DNA of 64,000 nucleotides from a virus (Duplodnaviria > Caudoviricetes). This document shows, piece after piece, positions 3,201-14,866 of this stretch. Position 1 is the first letter of the stretch, and the number at the start of each line of letters is the position of its first letter. A model generated the notes under the pieces. The model did no database searches. It was not told where the DNA came from and saw only the letters and a list, made by a program, of their open reading frames with translations. Made by a program: the position numbers and the translations under genes. The DNA is taken from IMG/VR virus record IMGVR_UViG_3300020050_009209; one strand, 5' to 3'.

Positions 3201-4166
3201 GTGTACATTTCATACTCTGGTTACAAGTCTAACGAGCAGTGCCCGTTGTCCTACTGGCATCGGTATGTAAACAAGACGGTGCTAACTGCCCCAGATAACG
3301 GTGTGAATGCCCTCTACGGGATAATCATTGGCACGGTTTTCGAGATCTTCTATCGAGATCGAATTTGGAAGCACGTCAACTACGTAGATAAGTTGCAGGA
3401 TCTCGTTGAGCCCGTCTACCTTGAGTCCACAAAACCTCAAAAGGGTAGGGTTATTGACTGGGGGGACGAGAGGTCGAACTATGCAAGTAAAGAGGCCTTA
3501 CTAGTCGATGTTCGAGACTCTATCCCACGGGGCATAGACACTATCCGACGAAATAGGCTCGTTGGTAGGTATGCGGAGGCTGAGGTAAAGCTTGACACGA
3601 AGTTTGGGGAGCATCTTATTGGAGGTAGAGCTGACTTCCTAATCCAGAGGGTGGCTCCTGACGGTGACCTCGTGTTGCTTGACGGTAAGGGGTCAAAGCA
3701 CAGAGATAAGTATGTCGATGGGCACGCTAAGAAAGCTGGAAAGCAAGTAGAGGGTGTGCAGCTCAAGTGGTACGCCTTCCTGCATAGAGCTAAGCTAAAT
3801 AAGGTCCCTGACCAGCTAGGCTATGTCTTCTGGAGATTTGAGGGGGACGCTGCTATGGAGTGGATCCCGTTCACCAAGTTCGATCTAGACCAGCTTCAAC
3901 ACGAGGTGTTGTCAACGGTCGACAGGGTGTCCGGGTCAATCCAGAAGCTTGCTAAGGTGAGCGGTAAGGCTCAAGAGCACTCGGAGTTGCTACAGGAGTT
4001 GTTCCCAGCTCAGCCAGGTTGGCACTGTTCGTTGTGTTCGTACCTTCCGGTGTGTGAGGAGGGTAAGAAAAAAGTAGCTTCCATTCAAAATCAACAACGA
4101 AAACCTAGGCCTACCCTACCCCAGAGTGGTGTACTAGAGGATGGCCTGTCTCTAGATGAGGAGTGA
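3201..4166 (+). CDS. PD-(D/E)XK nuclease (RecB/AddB/Cas4-like) with probable Fe-S cysteines
   Basis: ISYS..QCP N-terminus, GRADF..LLDGK core, QLKWY, C-terminal CSLCSYLPVC. Confidence 0.8.
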   Translation: MYISYSGYKSNEQCPLSYWHRYVNKTVLTAPDNGVNALYGIIIGTVFEIFYRDRIWKHVNYVDKLQDLVEPVYLESTKPQKGRVIDWGDERSNYASKEALLVDVRDSIPRGIDTIRRNRLVGRYAEAEVKLDTKFGEHLIGGRADFLIQRVAPDGDLVLLDGKGSKHRDKYVDGHAKKAGKQVEGVQLKWYAFLHRAKLNKVPDQLGYVFWRFEGDAAMEWIPFTKFDLDQLQHEVLSTVDRVSGSIQKLAKVSGKAQEHSELLQELFPAQPGWHCSLCSYLPVCEEGKKKVASIQNQQRKPRPTLPQSGVLEDGLSLDEE

Positions 4167-4452: not shown

Positions 4453-5649
4453 ATGAAATTTGCAGCAAACATTGCAGACTTACTGGAAGCCGTTAGTCTC
4501 GTTGGCATTGTCACCCCAGCGAAGGACTCTGGCTATCTATTCAAGGTAGTGGGCGAGCGTTGCTACGTCTACTCCAGTGATAGCCTGTGTGTGGCAAGAG
4601 CTGAGTTCGCTGTAAGCTCTGACGCGGATGGGGAGTTTATCTACCCCGTTGCGAACATCGACGCCTTGCGTTTCCTCGGTAAGCATACCGTTAGGTTTGA
4701 GACCGTGGAGGAGGAGGGGAAGTTCGTTGTACGCTACCAAGCGTCGAATGGGGCCAAGTCTGAGCGCACCACAAGGAACCCTAAGTCTCTATCCACTTGC
4801 GACCAGGAGCTGCAAAAAGCAGAGGAGGCTTACACTGTCCCAGCCAAGGTGCTCCAAAAAGCCCTTGTACTCAGCAAGCCCTTCATGGGTAAGGACGCCC
4901 CACAGGAGAAGTTCAGGTCCATACGGTTGCATACAGACCTGGGTGACGGATACCTTTGCGCCTCAGATGGGCAGAAGGCCTCCTTCTTTTGGTCTGAGGC
5001 CTTTCAGGGTAAGGCCTTCTCCGTCCACCAGCTCCACCTAGACAACCTGATAGGGTTTCTGGCAAAGAGTCCTGGGGAGATTCAGGTCCTCTTTGGGGCC
5101 CAGTTTACCTTTGTTCGAAACACGAAAGGTCAAGTGTTTGGCTGGCCAAAGTACGCAAATGCGGATGGTATTTTCAGCACTTACGCCCTAGATGTCGACT
5201 ACTTTGTTCTTGGGGTTGATCGGCAGCAACTGTACGGGACTCTTCAGTATCTGAAAAAAGAGCTGGAATCCAATTACGAGAAGGTGCGGATAGTCTACTC
5301 TCACGAGCAATGTAGCCTTGAGTTTGTGATTGCAGATGGGTCCTCTAAGGTCAAGAGCCCACCTACAGCCGTGAGGTTAAAGGCAAAACCGGACGGTGAG
5401 GTTTGGGCGTTGCCCGAAAGTTGGTCTTTCGATATCAGTTTAGACCATCTCATGTCCTTGGTTAAGGATAACCTCAGCCCTGAAGTGGAGCTGCGAGTGT
5501 GGTGGTGCCAAGTAGCTGAAGCTCGAAAACCAACTGGGGTTTTTCGCACTATAGATGAGTTTCGATTGGACTCCAATGGAGAGTCAGTCCCTGACTCGGA
5601 AGGTTCCGTGCTATGTCGAGTCATACGATTCATGTCCTCCCGAATGTAG
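4453..5649 (+). CDS. DNA polymerase III beta sliding clamp-like protein
   Basis: About 400 aa, MKFAANIADLLEAVSLV start, LCASDG motif, alternating beta/alpha pattern, replication context with DnaX. Confidence 0.65.
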   Translation: MKFAANIADLLEAVSLVGIVTPAKDSGYLFKVVGERCYVYSSDSLCVARAEFAVSSDADGEFIYPVANIDALRFLGKHTVRFETVEEEGKFVVRYQASNGAKSERTTRNPKSLSTCDQELQKAEEAYTVPAKVLQKALVLSKPFMGKDAPQEKFRSIRLHTDLGDGYLCASDGQKASFFWSEAFQGKAFSVHQLHLDNLIGFLAKSPGEIQVLFGAQFTFVRNTKGQVFGWPKYANADGIFSTYALDVDYFVLGVDRQQLYGTLQYLKKELESNYEKVRIVYSHEQCSLEFVIADGSSKVKSPPTAVRLKAKPDGEVWALPESWSFDISLDHLMSLVKDNLSPEVELRVWWCQVAEARKPTGVFRTIDEFRLDSNGESVPDSEGSVLCRVIRFMSSRM

Positions 5650-8829: not shown

Positions 8830-10281
8830 GTGTGGGATACTCGATATCGTCCACTAGTATTCTCTGATGTGCTGGGCCAGCAAGGCACAGTGCAGGTGCT
8901 TAGAGCTAGGTTAGCCAATGATACAGCTTTGGATACGAGTTACCTCTTCTCCGGGGCTTCTGGTCAGGGGAAAACCACTCTTGGTCGTATCTTAGCTCGG
9001 GCGTTACTTTGCACCCACCTGGACAAGTCTCTCCCAGACCCCTGCAATGCTTGCCCTAATTGCGTAGCTTGCCTCGAAGACACCTCGTCTGCGTTTGTCG
9101 AGAAAGACGCTGCGAACCAGGGCACCACTGAGCACATTCGAAAAATTGTCGAGGACCTACCCTTCGCTGTGTTCGGCGCCAGAAAGAGGGTTTACCTCTT
9201 TGATGAGTGTCATCGCATGAGTCTAGCTGCCCAAGACGGCCTATTGAAGCCTATTGAGGAGAAGCAGCTTGTAAGTATTCTTTGCACTACCGAGCCTGAA
9301 AAGGTTCGACACGCCATTCGTGCTAGGTGTGAAGAGTATGCGATTCGGAGAATCACCAGAGAAGACATCCTAGGTAGGATGGTGTCTATCCTTCAATCGG
9401 AGAAGGTGGACTACGAGGAAGATGCAGTTCTTACCGTGATCGACTTCGCTGGGGGACACGTTCGAGATGTGTTGAATCGTCTAGAGATGCTAGCGCAAGT
9501 TGGGGCAATCACTGTAAGCAGTGCTCGGGCCCATTTGAACTTGTCAGCAGTCACTACCTACTACAAGATCCTACTTAGCTTGGTCTCCAATACGCAAGAA
9601 GCTCTGGATCTACTAGACTCGCTAGGTGATACAAGTACTCCGGACGAGGTTGCTTCAGGTTTGACCGAAGCCGCAATGAACTCCTATCGTTTGGCTATGG
9701 GGATGTGTGCTAACTTTAGGTACGCTGACAAGAATCTTGGCTCACGGGTATTCGAAAGTTATGGTGGTAGTGGGTTAATTGAGTTGGTTAGGGTGCTCAC
9801 CTCCACGAAGTACTCGACACAAAATGGGCTTGTTTGCGACCTAGTGATCCTCGCTGATAAGTTGAGTTCGACCGCTCAAGCGCCTGTCCAGGTTCAGATT
9901 CAGAGTCCAATCCCGGCCCCTCCTCAGGTCCAGGCGGCCCCTCAGGTCACTGTTCCTGTTGCTGCCCCTCAGACCCCTACCCCTGCTCCTCAGGTCACTG
10001 CTCCTACTCCTGCTCCCGCCCCTCAGGTCCAGGCTCCTGTCACCCAGGATAAAGCCCCTACTCTGAGCTTCGTACCTCAACCCCCCTTAGGGGATTTAGG
10101 GTCTAACGACGTTTGCGCATTGACAGAAGTAGATTCTAAGGCAATGCCTACCGAGAAACCTGGAGTGGGTCGGATACGAAAACCACTCATCTTTGAAAAG
10201 CGAGGTGACAACAATGCCCCTATCCCTCCTAGTACATGGAGAAAGCACTTTGAGGCTCTTTGGGGCAGGAGACCTAAGTGA
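8830..10281 (+). CDS. dnaX: DNA polymerase III gamma/tau clamp-loader subunit
   Basis: RYRP..FSDVLGQ, GASGQGKTT, C..PC.AC..C zinc module, DECH, LLKPIEE, CTTE, IRARC, GHVRD. Confidence 0.92.
   Translation: MWDTRYRPLVFSDVLGQQGTVQVLRARLANDTALDTSYLFSGASGQGKTTLGRILARALLCTHLDKSLPDPCNACPNCVACLEDTSSAFVEKDAANQGTTEHIRKIVEDLPFAVFGARKRVYLFDECHRMSLAAQDGLLKPIEEKQLVSILCTTEPEKVRHAIRARCEEYAIRRITREDILGRMVSILQSEKVDYEEDAVLTVIDFAGGHVRDVLNRLEMLAQVGAITVSSARAHLNLSAVTTYYKILLSLVSNTQEALDLLDSLGDTSTPDEVASGLTEAAMNSYRLAMGMCANFRYADKNLGSRVFESYGGSGLIELVRVLTSTKYSTQNGLVCDLVILADKLSSTAQAPVQVQIQSPIPAPPQVQAAPQVTVPVAAPQTPTPAPQVTAPTPAPAPQVQAPVTQDKAPTLSFVPQPPLGDLGSNDVCALTEVDSKAMPTEKPGVGRIRKPLIFEKRGDNNAPIPPSTWRKHFEALWGRRPK
9915..10045 (+). 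repeat. imperfect PAPQV linker repeats in DnaX
   Basis: CCTCAGGTC and GCTCCT repeated, encoding PAPPQVQAAPQVTVPVAAPQTPTPAPQVTAP. Confidence 0.8.
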
Positions 10282-12149
10282 CTGCTAGTCCCCTAGATGA
10301 GTGGGTTGTCATCGAGCTAAGTGCTCAAGGGGAAGAGGAGGACCCGGATACTATCCTACAGGCCATACGACGGCTCCTAAAGAGGGAGGTAGAGATTTTC
10401 CTTCCGGTGTCTATACGTACTTCCGGAGACAGTAGGGTCGTTCACAAGCTAATTGACAATTATGTCTTCGTTCGACGAACTCTACCCGATACAGCGTACC
10501 TGAGGTTGGAGGGGACACGGTATATCGACTCAGTCCTCACTAGCAACAAGTCGACTGGCACATCAAGAAAAATTACTGGAGTGCGCAACTCTGACATAGA
10601 GAAGATGCGACGTCAGATCCATGTGGAGTGCGAACAGGGGATCAATGTTGGGGATGAGGTCCAGATTACTGGGGGCGCTTACCGCAATATTGTAGGTAAG
10701 GTGATAGAGGACATCCCAGAAACAGAGTCCGTTCAAGTTCACATTCAGCTAAGGTCAAAGGAGGCGATTGTCACACTCCCTCGATCGTTCCTAAGATTTG
10801 TCGCTAAGGGTCAGCAGCAAGCAAGCTCAGACTTTGCCCCTTTCGCCAACAAATTGACCCGCATTAGGGACTGGATTGAAGGGCTAAGGCCACTTGCTAT
10901 CGTGCCCGGTAAAGTCTCACCTTTACTTGAGTGCTACGTAAGATGGCGGAGGCTAACTCAATGGTGGACCTCCCACCAGAGCCTGAAGTTCGATCCAAAC
11001 CAGCTCCTACGTGGTACCAATCTCTTAGAGACTCAAATCCTATCTAAGTTGGAGGTACTTAGGCAGCAAGTAGCACTTACGCGCAGTCGTCCTTTCTTTG
11101 AGCTTGTGGCTATTAGCAAGGGCTTAGAGCGCGCAGACAACGTGAGGAGTAAGTTGTCCGCTACCTTAGGTAAGGTGCGGCAACTCCAGCGACTGCACCA
11201 AAGATTGGCTGCGATTAACAGTGAAGTTCGATGGCTAGAGGCTAGCCTGTTGGGTAAAGGTAGACATATGGTACAGAATGTAGTCGTAGATGGACTTAAC
11301 TTGGCGTATCGAGTTTACTATGCGTACGCAGCTTCCCGAGGATATATGGCCCCTGCAACTGAGGGTACAGTCCTGGCTCAAACCTTCCTCAAGAGTCTAG
11401 CTAGCCTTAGAAAGAAGTTCGATCGCGCCAATATCTATGTCGTGTGGGATGGCTCTTCTCAGTACCGAAGAGGGTTGTTCTCGGACTACAAGAAGGGTAG
11501 ATCCTCCCCACCATGGAAAGAATCCGAGATGCAAAGTCTCAGAGAGGTTCTGTCCGGACTAAAGGTGCAACAAGTCTGTAACCCTACAGAGGAGGCGGAT
11601 GACGTGATTGCTTGCCTGGTAAGAGGTCCTCTCAAAGGTCAAGCAAACGTCATTGTGTCCACAGACCGAGACTTCCTACAGCTTGTCACTCACTCCGACT
11701 TGTTGCTGGTCCCAAAGCAAGGAGCACGAGCAGAGCTTTTGTACGACCGGGATAAGGTAGTGTCGGAATTTGGCCTGGCCCCAGAGAGACTTAATCAGTA
11801 CAAGGCGTTCTGTGGGGACAAATCCGACAACCTTCCTGGAGTTCCACGCGTACCGAAGAAGGTATTCGTCGACCTAATCAATACGTTCCACGACGTCGAA
11901 AGTATCTTCGCATCTAGCCTGTCCAACTTGACTGTCAAACAGTGCGCGCAAATGCGAGGTTCCGAGGCTCAGGTGAAGTTGAACCTACACCTGGTCACGC
12001 TACGCTCTGACCTAACCTTTGAATATTTCCCTGAGTTGACGCCAGATGAGACTGAGGGCGTACTAACGCGACATGGTGTCTCTACTACATTAGCAAGTAG
12101 TGTGAGGCGTAAGTCAGGGTTCGAAAAGGTCGGTACTTCTAACTCATAG
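10278..12149 (+). CDS. NusG-like (NGN+KOW) protein fused in frame to a 5'-3' exonuclease (FEN/PolI N-terminal type)
   Basis: EWVVI..IFLP..NYVFV NGN domain, VGDEVQITGGAY KOW; from M at 11268: VVDGLNLAYR, VWDG, YKKGR, EADDVIA, STDRDFLQL, GDKSDNLPGVP. Confidence 0.88.
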   Translation: MTASPLDEWVVIELSAQGEEEDPDTILQAIRRLLKREVEIFLPVSIRTSGDSRVVHKLIDNYVFVRRTLPDTAYLRLEGTRYIDSVLTSNKSTGTSRKITGVRNSDIEKMRRQIHVECEQGINVGDEVQITGGAYRNIVGKVIEDIPETESVQVHIQLRSKEAIVTLPRSFLRFVAKGQQQASSDFAPFANKLTRIRDWIEGLRPLAIVPGKVSPLLECYVRWRRLTQWWTSHQSLKFDPNQLLRGTNLLETQILSKLEVLRQQVALTRSRPFFELVAISKGLERADNVRSKLSATLGKVRQLQRLHQRLAAINSEVRWLEASLLGKGRHMVQNVVVDGLNLAYRVYYAYAASRGYMAPATEGTVLAQTFLKSLASLRKKFDRANIYVVWDGSSQYRRGLFSDYKKGRSSPPWKESEMQSLREVLSGLKVQQVCNPTEEADDVIACLVRGPLKGQANVIVSTDRDFLQLVTHSDLLLVPKQGARAELLYDRDKVVSEFGLAPERLNQYKAFCGDKSDNLPGVPRVPKKVFVDLINTFHDVESIFASSLSNLTVKQCAQMRGSEAQVKLNLHLVTLRSDLTFEYFPELTPDETEGVLTRHGVSTTLASSVRRKSGFEKVGTSNS

Positions 12150-12296: not shown

Positions 12297-12911
12297 ATGG
12301 CAGACGGGTACCTTATCCTTGTAGACCCAACTGAGTTAGCAAATCGATTCTCCACTCAACCCAAAGAATTTGAGGAGGAGGAACCTGAAGTAAGTACGAG
12401 TATGGCTCTGAGCTATGAGAGCCAGATTCAACCTCTATTAGACCGGATCCCTAAAAGGGAGGCGGATCTCATGGAGTTGTACTACATGCAAAAGAAACGT
12501 CAGGCAGACCTTGCCGAGATCTTTGGGGTGACCCAAGCTGCAATCAGCTACAGGTTGAACCGAGGACTCCAGCGAATTAGGTTCCTGCTGTCGATCCCAA
12601 CCCTCAGTGAAGATGGGTTACGTCAGGACCTCCCAGAGGTGCCATTTAAGCCGACTGACGTTAACATTCTTGTGGGTATGTGGCAAACAACTTGCCAGTC
12701 TGAAGTAGCTTCCAAGTTAGGCCTAACTCAAGGTAGAGTTAGGCATCGTTTTTTTGGGGCTGTAGTAGTCCTAGAGAAGAGGGCTGCGGAGGACCCTAAG
12801 TTCGTCCCCTACTCCAAGGTCTTCAGTTCCATTGCGAACAAAAATTTCAACGTTTTACGCGAAGTTAAATTGCCACAATGGCAGGGACGAGGCGGAGACG
12901 GCTGTTTTTAG
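12297..12911 (+). CDS. sigma70 region-4-like transcription factor with two HTH domains
   Basis: RIPKREADLMELYY..QADLAEIFGVTQAAISYRL and QSEVASKLGLTQGRVRHR; GAGG RBS. Confidence 0.7.
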   Translation: MADGYLILVDPTELANRFSTQPKEFEEEEPEVSTSMALSYESQIQPLLDRIPKREADLMELYYMQKKRQADLAEIFGVTQAAISYRLNRGLQRIRFLLSIPTLSEDGLRQDLPEVPFKPTDVNILVGMWQTTCQSEVASKLGLTQGRVRHRFFGAVVVLEKRAAEDPKFVPYSKVFSSIANKNFNVLREVKLPQWQGRGGDGCF

Positions 12912-12950
12912 TTGGGTTTGTGTGTCACCTAAAGACAACCTCGAAAAGGT

Positions 12951-12978
12951 TTGACTCAGTGGTCGCGAGAGCTATACT
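12951..12978 (+). promoter_or_regulatory. sigma70-type promoter (leaderless) for the HNH/MTase locus
   Basis: TTGACT-16 bp-TATACT, then 6 nt to ATG 12985. Confidence 0.7.
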
Positions 12979-13072
12979 GAGCCCATGTACCTGAAACATG
13001 GACTCAGTAACACGCCAGAGTATAAGTGTTGGCAGCAAATAAAGGCTCGCTGTATGAACTCCAACCACCGAG

Positions 13073-13778
13073 CGCGCCTCGCGGGGCTGCCATGTTGAAG
13101 CCGTTTTTCCCGTTCTACGGGTCCAAGTGGCGCGATGCAAAGCGCTACCCTGCGCCTCGCGAGATGGTCATCGAGCCTTTTGCTGGGTCGGCCGGATACG
13201 CGACATTTCACGAGCCTGCGCGCGTGATTCTGAACGACTTCGATCCCATCCTCGTTGGAGTGTGGGACTACCTGATCCACGTCTCGCCGGCAGAGGTGCT
13301 CGCGCTCCCCGACCTCGACGTCGGGCAGAACGTGGATAGCCTTTCGCTCCCGCAGGAGGCACGATGGCTCATCGGCTTCTGGCTCAACCGTGGATCGTCG
13401 CAACCCAAGAAGACGAAAACGGCGTTTTCTGCGCGTACCGAGCGAGCGCAACTTGTGTGGTCCCAGCGGGCGCGCGAGCGAATCGCCTCGCAGGTGGGCC
13501 GCATTCGTCACTGGGAGATCCGATACGGCGGTTACGAATCGGTCCCGATGGCCGAAGCCACATACTTCGTTGACCCGCCGTACCTCGGCAAGGGGCGATT
13601 CTATCGCTTCCACGATGTAGACTATCCGCGCCTCGCGGCATGGTGTCGACGCATGCCAGGCGACGTCATTGCCTGCGAGAACGTCGGCGCGGACTGGCTC
13701 CCGTTCGAGCCGCTGGCCGTGATCAAAAGCACGAAGGGAACATCGGTGGAGGTCGTATTTTCGCGCCTCGCGGGGCTG
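13073..13778 (+). repeat. 17-bp direct repeat CGCGCCTCGCGGGGCTG bracketing the MTase (13073-13089 and 13762-13778)
   Basis: Exact match read from the sequence; partial copies at 13152-13161 and 13627-13638. Confidence 0.9.
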
Positions 13779-13793
13779 GAGGTGGCGAAGTGA
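13092..13793 (+). CDS. Dam/D12-class N6-adenine DNA methyltransferase
   Basis: FYGSKW motif X, IEPFAGS motif I, ILND, FVDPPY motif IV. Confidence 0.9.
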   Translation: MLKPFFPFYGSKWRDAKRYPAPREMVIEPFAGSAGYATFHEPARVILNDFDPILVGVWDYLIHVSPAEVLALPDLDVGQNVDSLSLPQEARWLIGFWLNRGSSQPKKTKTAFSARTERAQLVWSQRARERIASQVGRIRHWEIRYGGYESVPMAEATYFVDPPYLGKGRFYRFHDVDYPRLAAWCRRMPGDVIACENVGADWLPFEPLAVIKSTKGTSVEVVFSRLAGLEVAK

Positions 13794-14866
13794 AGTATCA
13801 TGCGAACGCCATCGGAAACGGAGAGGCGCGCTTACCTAGATTATGGTGGTCGTGGGGTAACGATCTTTGATGGGTGGGTTAAAGACTTCAGGGCCTTCTT
13901 GGCTCATGTTGGTCCCCGTCCTTCTGATGGTCATTCGTTGGATAGGTACCCTAACCTCAACGGTAACTATGAGCCTGGTAATGTCCGTTGGGCTACAGAT
14001 AAGGAACAGAACAACAACCGTCGTCCTCACCGGAAGCATGGTGTGAAGCTTTGTTCGAGGCCCGTTCGGACTGACGGTAAGCCTACTAACTTCAAGCACG
14101 GTGGAGTTGGGACTCCAGAATATCGGGCGTGGTCTCTGATGAAGGACCGTTGTTTGAATCCGAAGAGTGGTAACTATCCATATTGGGGTGGTCGGGGCAT
14201 CAAGATTCACGAACCATGGATCGTAGACTTTCTGGTTTTTTACCAATACATTGGTCCCCGCCCCTCGCCTCAGCACTCGCTGGATCGAATCGACAATAAT
14301 GCGGATTACCAACCTGGGAATGTTCGTTGGGCCACAAAGTTGGAGCAAACAGAGAACAGGCGTCCGTGTAAGGTAGGACCTACTCACGGCAATTTTGACC
14401 ACGGTTACACTGGCACTCCAGAGTTCAAGACTTGGACGAGCATCAAGACTCGATGCTTCAACGAGAAGCATGACCGTTATGTCTCCTACGGTGGAGCTGG
14501 CATCACGATGTGTCAGCGATGGAAGAGCAGTTTCCCTGCCTTCTTTGAGGACCTTGGATCAAAGCCAACCTCAGAGCACACAATCCTTCGAGAGAGTCAA
14601 GAGGGGCATTACTCTTGTGGAGGGTGTACGGAGTGTCTTGAAAAGGGCTGGAAGCTCAATGCACGTTGGGCTACACGAACCGAAGTTAACCGAAACCGCC
14701 GCCCTTCTACGAGGTCCGGTAAGCTCACCCTAGAGAAGGTGCAAGACATCCGTGCTCGTATCCTTAAGGGTGAGACGCACAAGCAACTCGCTGAAGTGTT
14801 TATGGTGGGCGTTACCTTGATTGGAAAGATAGCTAGACGTGAAATCTGGCTTTAGAGGTAGCGACC

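Follow-up and report, generated by a model that had tools for sequence, protein, structure and literature searches.

The virus genome in IMG/VR record IMGVR_UViG_3300020050_009209 (Duplodnaviria; Caudoviricetes) spans 379,936 bp and has direct terminal repeats. We analyzed a part of it comprising 64,000 nucleotides, referred to below as the window and numbered from its first letter, in which the long open reading frames (ORFs) all lie on the plus strand. Here, a 758-bp foreign insert carrying a gene for a DNA methyltransferase interrupts a nuclease-like gene with three repeats. The insert occupies positions 13072..13829 on the plus strand, with 13073-13830 and 13074-13831 being equally possible due to a 2-nt ambiguity, and its junctions read CAC CGA/GCG CGC CTC on the left and GAG GCG C/GCT TAC CTA on the right. 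Removal of 13072-13829 joins codon 29 (CGA) to GCT, and the two parts of the phage gene (12985-13071 and 13830-14855) form a frame of 370 codons with zero internal stops; the insertion lies between codons 29 and 30 of the phage gene, and all target bases are retained. The rejoined product corresponds to an intact 369-aa ortholog in a related 155-kb phage contig (L049:4004-5113), with 219/376 positions identical. The gene order in this contig is also the same—a fusion of NusG and 5'-3' exonuclease, a sigma region-4 protein, the ortholog of the interrupted gene and a 302-aa protein. Contigs of relatives with 95-99% nucleotide identity, found in runs X19, X20 and X5 from three studies, pass from 13071 directly to 13830 and skip exactly 758 bp, their empty-site junctions ending GC..GC with a 2-nt GC ambiguity. 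The same empty site, reading ...CCACCGAGCTTACC..., is present in the metagenome-assembled NCBI contig JBQVBM010054446.1 (L059; 204 kb, 94% nucleotide identity). A preliminary description of this DNA had proposed that excision of the 758 bp would restore a gene of ~370 aa and that the empty junction be sought in related phages; the restored frame and the natural empty sites in X19, X20, X5 and L059 support both suggestions, and 13072-13829 is confirmed as a real insertion in a phage gene.

The insert's GC content is 0.628 overall against a genome mean of 0.515. At a finer scale it stays at 0.62-0.64 from ~13100 to 13800, whereas both flanks have values of 0.48-0.52, as expected from the earlier account of a GC-rich insert. 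Per kilobase, the GC content of the window varies between 0.47 and 0.57 except in 13001-14000, where it reaches 0.595, and the insert is one of only seven stretches with at least 0.60 GC in the whole 380 kb (400-bp windows, standard deviation 0.025). The 379,936-bp genome contains a single copy of it. The insertion is young, since the right flank of an insert-free relative (run X19) differs at just 4 of 706 positions. Other signs of recency are the unameliorated composition of the insert and its possession of the genome's sole GCCGGC site, at 13286. Taken with a donor-type context of 71-72% GC, these observations uphold the proposal of a recent, foreign and precise insertion from a high-GC donor. 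Left-junction and empty-site patterns had no match in the viral contigs scanned, a set outside which the records of the nearest relatives lie, and a DNA search of the INPHARED phages returned no match.

The insert contains one intact ORF of 233 aa (13092..13793, plus strand), preceded by 20 nt and followed by 36 nt, which leaves 56 nt of non-coding sequence. Its motifs and its matches to PF02086 and PHROG 56 predict an N6-adenine DNA methyltransferase distantly related to the D12/Dam type. The match to PHROG 56 ('DNA methyltransferase') has an E-value of 3e-13. The match to PF02086 (D12 class) scores 25.0 bits at a gathering cut-off of 22 and aligns residues 24-69 alone, and the score against TIGR00571 (17.6) is far under the cut-off of 114.85. 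Neither motif I (EPFAGSAGY, residues 28-36) nor motif IV (DPPY, residues 161-164) varies across the family alignment, and the protein retains all columns that are invariant in the family. We found 2143 homologs at E<=1e-20, many of them on (pro)phage contigs; the two nearest have 87% and 75% identity, and 5.8 billion protein clusters contain no relative above 87% identity. The best match among INPHARED phage proteins has 41% identity, and no solved structures are related to the methylase by sequence. No other ORF of the insert has a family match (a long antisense ORF is without a Pfam hit), and the insert encodes no recombinase, which agrees with the previous reading of a solo Dam-class methyltransferase unaccompanied by a transposase or recombinase.

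Expression of the methylase can be read from the arrangement of the flanking phage sequence. A promoter-like site, TTGACT-16-TATACT (12951..12978, plus strand), matches the consensus at 10 of 12 positions and likely drives both the stub of the interrupted gene and the methylase. The stub ORF (12985..13098, plus strand) has 37 codons, 29 from the phage and eight from the insert (ARLAGLPC), and ends with a TGA at 13096-13098 that overlaps the methylase ATG (ATGTTGA), suggesting coupled translation. The methylase would thus be transcribed from the promoter of the interrupted gene and translated by stop-start coupling behind the 37-codon stub. After the methylase, the donor GTG opens an out-of-frame remnant of 25 codons. 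The remaining 341 codons of the nuclease-like gene (13830..14855, plus strand) lie in an open frame that starts at an ATG supplied by the insert (13800), forming a 351-aa ORF that is probably poorly made because this ATG sits 15 nt from the ribosome-binding sequence. The nuclease-like gene has probably been inactivated by the insertion. A separate feature of this region is a 14-nt inverted repeat at window positions 12975-13009, directly after the promoter-like site; its hairpin covers the interrupted gene's start codon (DNA fold -11.3 kcal/mol, z = -3.4).

The interrupted gene had been described as an HNH homing endonuclease. Its disruption is evident, and the gene matches PHROG 3377 and 374 ('HNH endonuclease') in three stretches at E about 1e-79, but it has no Pfam hit, HNH included, even at E<=10. 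An AlphaFold2 model of one repeat has a pLDDT of 89; the top Foldseek rows are HNH nucleases, all weak at E>1, and the best VIA match, also weak, is to PacI, a restriction enzyme of the HNH type (Z 5.7, rmsd 3.5, 79 residues). An alignment of 42 sequences shows no invariant or near-invariant His in the repeat, the conserved residues being G, W, F, P, R, Y and N. Given the weak fold matches, the absence of a Pfam hit and the lack of a conserved histidine, the designation of a selfish nuclease is unproven. The suggested match of the first repeat to the two internal ones holds: the 29-aa phage part of the stub has 12/22 and 13/24 residues identical when aligned with the beginnings of internal repeats 2 and 3, and 21/29 when aligned with the N-terminus of the L049 ortholog. 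This ~90-aa repeat (window 13830-14855, L049:4004-5113) follows the pattern ..TPEY..W..M..RC.N....Y..YGGRGI.....W..F..F...VG.RPS..HSLDRID..G.YEPGNVRWAT..EQ..N.R and occurs in >105,000 representative proteins, while no Pfam model describes it. The repeat is combined with differing partner domains, among them a methylase, sigma region 4 and treble-clef fingers. Upstream of the interrupted gene, window positions 10278-12149 encode a single 623-aa ORF which combines NusG/KOW-like N-terminal domains (weak matches) with a 5'-3' exonuclease (PF02739, PF01367), a fusion that the related contigs L049 and L059 share.

Both ends of the insert can be traced to the genes that flank the methylase in its relatives. 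The left 20 nt are the tail of a donor gene, here called A, and a donor gene B contributes its first 13 codons as the last 40 nt. Read in the stub's frame, the left leader encodes ARLAGLPC followed by a stop, the counterpart of which in contig L058 is ..TLARLLGEVGKC and a stop. The head of gene B (13790..13829, plus strand) begins with a GTG that overlaps the methylase stop as GTGA and is truncated at the right junction; the right end of the insert encodes MKYHANAIGNGEAR, and the gene B counterpart in L050 and L058 reads MRYKAYVSLGTE... Homology to gene B extends to the gene after the methylase in these two contigs and to a run X20 contig that continues beyond the right junction. The nearest methylase relative (87% amino acid identity) lies on L058, an 8.4-kb contig of 71% GC with a gene for single-stranded DNA-binding protein nearby. 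The order in L058 is A-methylase-B: the methylase ends in ..VVCLLGEVSK and a stop, gene B begins with MRYKAYV.., the stop of A overlaps the methylase start, and the methylase stop overlaps the GTG of B. Since both ends of the insert lie within remnants of A and B, the 758 bp represent a slice of an A-methylase-B operon. Gene A homologs include proteins from metagenome-assembled genomes of Myxococcales. In L060 and L061, no methylase follows gene A, which adjoins the next gene directly, and in a run X20 contig an A-type tail is directly followed by a B head. The viral contigs contain no match to the A-tail pattern and no relatives of gene A, and L057, one of two metagenome matches to the A tail, proved to be a chance match. 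The relatives thus point to a putative donor operon of high GC content and Myxococcales-type, prophage-like character.

The insert also bears the trace of an older event. The 17-nt direct repeat CGCGCCTCGCGGGGCTG is present in two copies, compared with 0.04 expected. The left copy (13073..13089, plus strand) is what remains of the gene A 3' end and is homologous to the A tail in L050 and L058, and the right copy (13762..13778, plus strand) encodes the context-derived C-terminal tail of the methylase (SRLAGL-EVAK and a stop). The conserved core of the methylase stops just before the right repeat, at ..S.E.V[FWY], and the tails vary between contexts. In L058 the equivalent repeat, GCCTGCTCGGGGAGGTG plus AAGTG, is found in the same two places, with a third junction copy after gene B. 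The junction, composed of A tail, ribosome-binding site and start, therefore occurs three times within L058:6480-7560, at the A/methylase, methylase/B and B/next gene boundaries. By comparison, gene A is directly followed by the next gene at L060:1565-1680 and L061:3249-3364. The three junction copies of L058 and the plain junction of L060 and L061 indicate that two insertions followed one another at this junction and that it was duplicated each time. As judged from these comparisons, the 17-nt repeat is inherited: the methylase had been inserted earlier at the donor A/B junction, duplicating 17-25 nt of it. A wider likeness between the A tail of L058 and the methylase core (KST..AEV) was discarded as noise, since it adds just ~8 score units.

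Repeats of this kind accompany other members of the methylase family. Strong repeats between the 3' end of the upstream gene and the methylase tail (score of at least 40) are found in 6 of 49 homologous loci and in 1 of 298 control ORFs; at a score of at least 30 the counts are 6/49 and 4/298 (Fisher p = 8e-4). The six loci (L005, L013, L018, L032, L033 and L045) have repeats of 26 to 50 nt or more, with sequences that are all different and neighboring genes that are unrelated. In L045, an isolate-derived prophage contig, repeats of at least 50 nt (3908-3957 and 4706-4755; 45/50 identical) surround a methylase homolog of lower GC content, and in L030, a 407-kb phage contig, a 31-nt repeat (3290-3320 and 3899-3929) surrounds the gene adjoining the methylase.

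The ends of the insert form an inverted repeat, as noted in the preliminary description. The sequences AGCGCGCCTC and GAGGCGCGCT at 13071-80 and 13823-32 are 100% complementary. Because AG and CT are part of the palindromic target, whose symmetry is limited to AGCT, the terminal repeat of the insert itself measures 8 nt; it is perfect in the register 13073-13830, with the left arm at 13073-13080 (CGCGCCTC) and the right arm at 13823..13830 (GAGGCGCG, plus strand). Both ends are also GCGCGC palindromes. The target duplication amounts to 0-2 nt, as the shared GC can be read either as a duplication or as microhomology. The perfect repeat is present at the exact ends of the insert but absent from the nearest relatives: at the position of the left arm, L050 and L058 read GCCCGCCTG, while the insert reads GCGCGCCTC. 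On the right, the related B gene in run X20 runs on past the arm. The two arms consist of ordinary coding sequence from donor genes A and B, and the hairpin at the right end is no more stable than shuffled sequences (z = -0.7). The earlier proposal of a gene-carrying element with its own ends, resembling a miniature inverted-repeat transposable element (MITE), is not supported, since the ends lie inside donor genes, the insert is present in a single copy and its relatives are without these ends; the homologous methyltransferases that were to share them carry GCCCGCCTG in L050 and L058 instead. The insert is not a new class of mobile element.

Several other sources of the insert or its ends were examined and set aside. 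Rfam searches over 12700-14100 at E<=1 produced just noise and no group I or II intron, and with only 56 nt of the insert being non-coding we discount a self-splicing intron or ribozyme. An integron cassette is not indicated either: the ends have no GTTRRRY or RYYYAAC core, the right-end fold is unremarkable and no integrase family is matched. A break guided by TnpB was considered and dropped; an 11-nt target match lies ~480 nt beyond the stop of the TnpB-like ORF, inside another ORF, and ~0.2 such matches are expected by chance. The ORF in question encodes 373 aa (G000:C1:371275-372396, minus strand; L056:1411-2532; PF07282, 78 bits), and no Y1 or serine transposase is found in the phage. Across the phage genome there is no family match to a resolvase, tyrosine integrase, rve, Y1 transposase, Ku or DNA ligase. 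Selection against GCGCGC does not apply, as the rarity of this site is explained by lower-order composition and it is not among the depleted palindromes. Origin as a restriction fragment, suggested by the GCGCGC ends, is speculation: two internal GCGCGC sites are uncut, and three extra bases of the inverted repeat are unaccounted for.

Two further islands in the same genome provide a comparison. The first (L053; G000:C1:80933-81342) is 340 bp long with 67% GC, carries on the reverse strand a fragment similar to sigma-70 region 4 (..MTLQEIADVLGLSRERVRCIEAHALRKLR..) and is flanked by perfect 35-nt direct repeats of phage-like composition. The second (L054; G000:C1:121152-122816) is 1.6 kb long with 60% GC, splits a phage ORF and has 14-nt repeats (GTCGAGTGAAGCTG). 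Its cargo consists of a donor-gene tail and a 513-aa type III-like Mod methylase (PF01555), truncated at ..CEW with the stop codon supplied by the 14-nt repeat. The relatives of this Mod are Myxococcota proteins of 570-600 residues with 83-90% identity, and the 83%-identical Myxococcus homolog extends 59 residues more. Neither island, at 80.9 and 121.2 kb, has terminal inverted repeats, and no match to their empty sites was found in the related 155-kb record, which is 32% complete. Palindromes of 6 bp are avoided to an extreme degree in the native phage sequence, six of them being absent altogether: observed (expected) counts are 0 (147) for GAGCTC, 0 (108) for CTCGAG, 0 (98) for CTGCAG, 0 (19) for CCCGGG, 0 (11.5) for GCCGGC, 0 (15) for TTTAAA, 1 (11) for CCGCGG and 5 (33) for CACGTG. 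The three islands hold the genome's sole CTGCAG, its sole GCCGGC and one of its two CCGCGG sites. Islands of Myxococcota-type DNA and purged palindromes together indicate that the phage captures such DNA repeatedly and lives under strong restriction pressure. These captures, comprising at least two methylases and one regulator fragment, also point to the host range. Elsewhere in the genome, many short repeats of tRNA T-arm type (GGTTCGATTCC and similar) at G000:C1:126800-148400 suggest a large tRNA gene cluster.

We consider the insert to be, more likely than not, a recent one-off illegitimate capture of a fragment from a Myxococcales-type prophage-like operon—the tail of A, the methylase and the head of B—joined with no more than 2 nt of junction homology, and not a self-contained element. 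The join could have arisen when a replicating phage strand switched template to donor DNA and back, or when a broken donor fragment was joined to a break at AG/CT. Template switching is slightly favored over end joining because the sister captures carry 14- and 35-nt duplications, such as a nascent strand returning upstream of its departure point would give. The two GC-rich breakpoints forming the 8-bp inverted repeat probably steered where the fragment starts and ends, perhaps because the repeat aided strand return or because cuts fell at GCGCGC sites. The methylase has probably been retained for protecting phage DNA against host restriction. A number of points weigh against a simple capture. 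A terminal repeat of at least 8 nt is expected in just ~1e-4 of random fragments of high-GC DNA, which makes the breakpoints non-random; capture leaves this repeat unexplained, and it is too unlikely to be dismissed as coincidence. We found no DNA with >95% identity, as the true donor would show, and the nearest protein is 87% identical, so that the sequence of the donor breakpoints is deduced from relatives. Template switching and end joining are indistinguishable from sequence alone. Finally, no contig from four runs (X19, X20, X5 and X1) spans the filled junction; run X1 contains pieces with 99-100% identity, none of them in a contig covering the insert or a junction, and thereby speaks neither for nor against the filled form. 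This form is supported by the IMG/VR assembly and by the 351-aa product starting in the insert (P0241), which was called on 6 JGI contigs.

The last of these points, together with the indexed runs holding at most 47% of the words of the stretch, raises the question of whether an assembler spliced the foreign 758 bp into a phage contig. Such a chimera is very improbable: the ORF that crosses from the insert into the phage gene recurs on the 6 JGI contigs, the overlap of stub stop and methylase start is a biologically coherent fit, and with just 2 nt shared at each junction an assembler could not make both joins at one target position. The inverted repeat invites a different explanation, put forward in the preliminary description, in which a transposase or site-specific recombinase acting in trans moved the segment; its sites, genuine or surrogate, would be the inverted ends of 7-8 bp. 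The ~1e-4 chance of the repeat speaks for such an enzyme, as do the 2-nt GC ambiguity at both junctions, the precise insertion that kept all target bases and the recurrence of GCGCCTC within the insert (four times direct, once inverted). Moreover, the joined ends form a perfect 16-nt palindrome, GAGGCGC-GC-GCGCCTC, and its central GC, shared with the target, would fit a 2-bp crossover, as made by a serine recombinase or an IS607-like enzyme, or an IS30-like 2-bp duplication. Nevertheless, we regard this as unlikely, given that both arms are coding sequence of A and B and missing from the closest relatives, that the segment occurs once, and that the phage has no matches to resolvase, integrase, rve or Y1 genes. 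Eight bp is also short for a recognition end, the target symmetry is no wider than AGCT, and the two sister insertions have no inverted ends. Less likely still is that a dedicated cassette-insertion process, one that repeatedly sets members of this methylase family at the ends of genes and makes long duplications derived from the context, acted here too. The excess of strong repeats at homologous loci, the two successive insertions at one junction in L058 and the 14- and 35-nt duplications around the other captures of this genome all suggest that kind of process; the focal duplication, however, is 0-2 nt rather than 14-50 nt, the 17-nt repeat derives from the donor and not from the target, and the insert sits in the middle of a gene and not at a gene end. 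Illegitimate capture remains our preferred account, and on this account the insert is an ordinary kind of event, the capture of a foreign gene, seen in unusual detail and with one unexplained feature, its terminal inverted repeat.

The event provides a natural snapshot of a giant phage of virulent type gaining a probable anti-restriction gene. Public data hold both the filled and the empty alleles, the type of donor can be named, and the wiring of expression is readable from the sequence. A wider lead lies in the junction-duplicating insertions of this Dam-like methylase family in phages. The nested repeats tie gene capture in phages to the unexplained insertion of bacterial restriction-modification genes with long target duplications, and supply many new examples for testing a mechanism. 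It is conceivable, although we would sooner doubt it, that an uncharacterized process with no recognizable recombinase drops single foreign genes, especially of the small Dam-like methylase family, in sense orientation into transcribed phage DNA. It would typically duplicate 10-50 nt comprising the gene end, stop, ribosome-binding site and start, so that the newcomer and the downstream gene stay coupled, and it would constitute a dedicated mechanism as opposed to random illegitimate recombination filtered by selection. The focal insert would then be a second-generation product, a cassette that still has around it the junction duplicated in its former host.

Insertions accompanied by long, variable duplications of the target were described in bacterial chromosomes at a threshold of >30 bp, with both restriction (R) and modification (M) genes required (Furuta 2010). 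They comprise methylase-bearing DNA of deviant GC content without a transposase, flanked by target copies that often overlap the 3' end of a neighboring gene (Furuta 2010). The methylase insertion in the donor lineage (17-25 nt), the six homologous loci and the two islands of the phage (14 and 35 nt) are alike in kind. As in those cases, the focal event has neither a transposase nor an integrase within or next to its insert, and an empty site exists in a related genome; it differs in its 0-2-nt duplication, its terminal inverted repeats, its location in a phage genome and its solo methylase.

Other known systems resemble the insert in part. Like the orphan Dam-like (D12 class) methyltransferases of phages, its product is a small N6-adenine methylase in which motif I comes ahead of DPPY; it has no partner nuclease and is common on (pro)phage contigs. 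The focal enzyme departs from them in its marginal PF02086 match, its TIGR00571 score below the cut-off and the lack of a solved relative by sequence. Like an integron gene cassette, the insert is a promoter-less single-gene unit driven by an upstream promoter, but attC cores, a stable hairpin and an integrase, which distinguish such cassettes, were not found here. MITEs and the mycobacteriophage elements MPME1/2 are multi-copy, their ends are conserved between copies and lie outside host genes. The focal insert is similarly small, has no recognizable transposase and bears short terminal inverted repeats, as do those elements, which in the case of MPME also reside in phage genomes; it differs in being present once, with ends that are absent in its nearest relatives and consist of donor coding sequence. 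Serine transposition of the IS607 family and IS30-type transposition likewise involve a 2-bp core or duplication, abutted ends that are palindromic and no long target duplication. The present case differs from both in that no such enzyme was found in the phage and in that the arms, of 7-8 bp, are unconserved in relatives. Phage morons classically lie between genes and have their own promoter and terminator. As in morons and the mosaicism produced by illegitimate recombination, a single foreign gene of deviant composition would have been joined non-homologously and kept as useful; the focal insert differs from them in lying inside a gene, borrowing its promoter, being translationally coupled and having both filled and empty alleles in nature.

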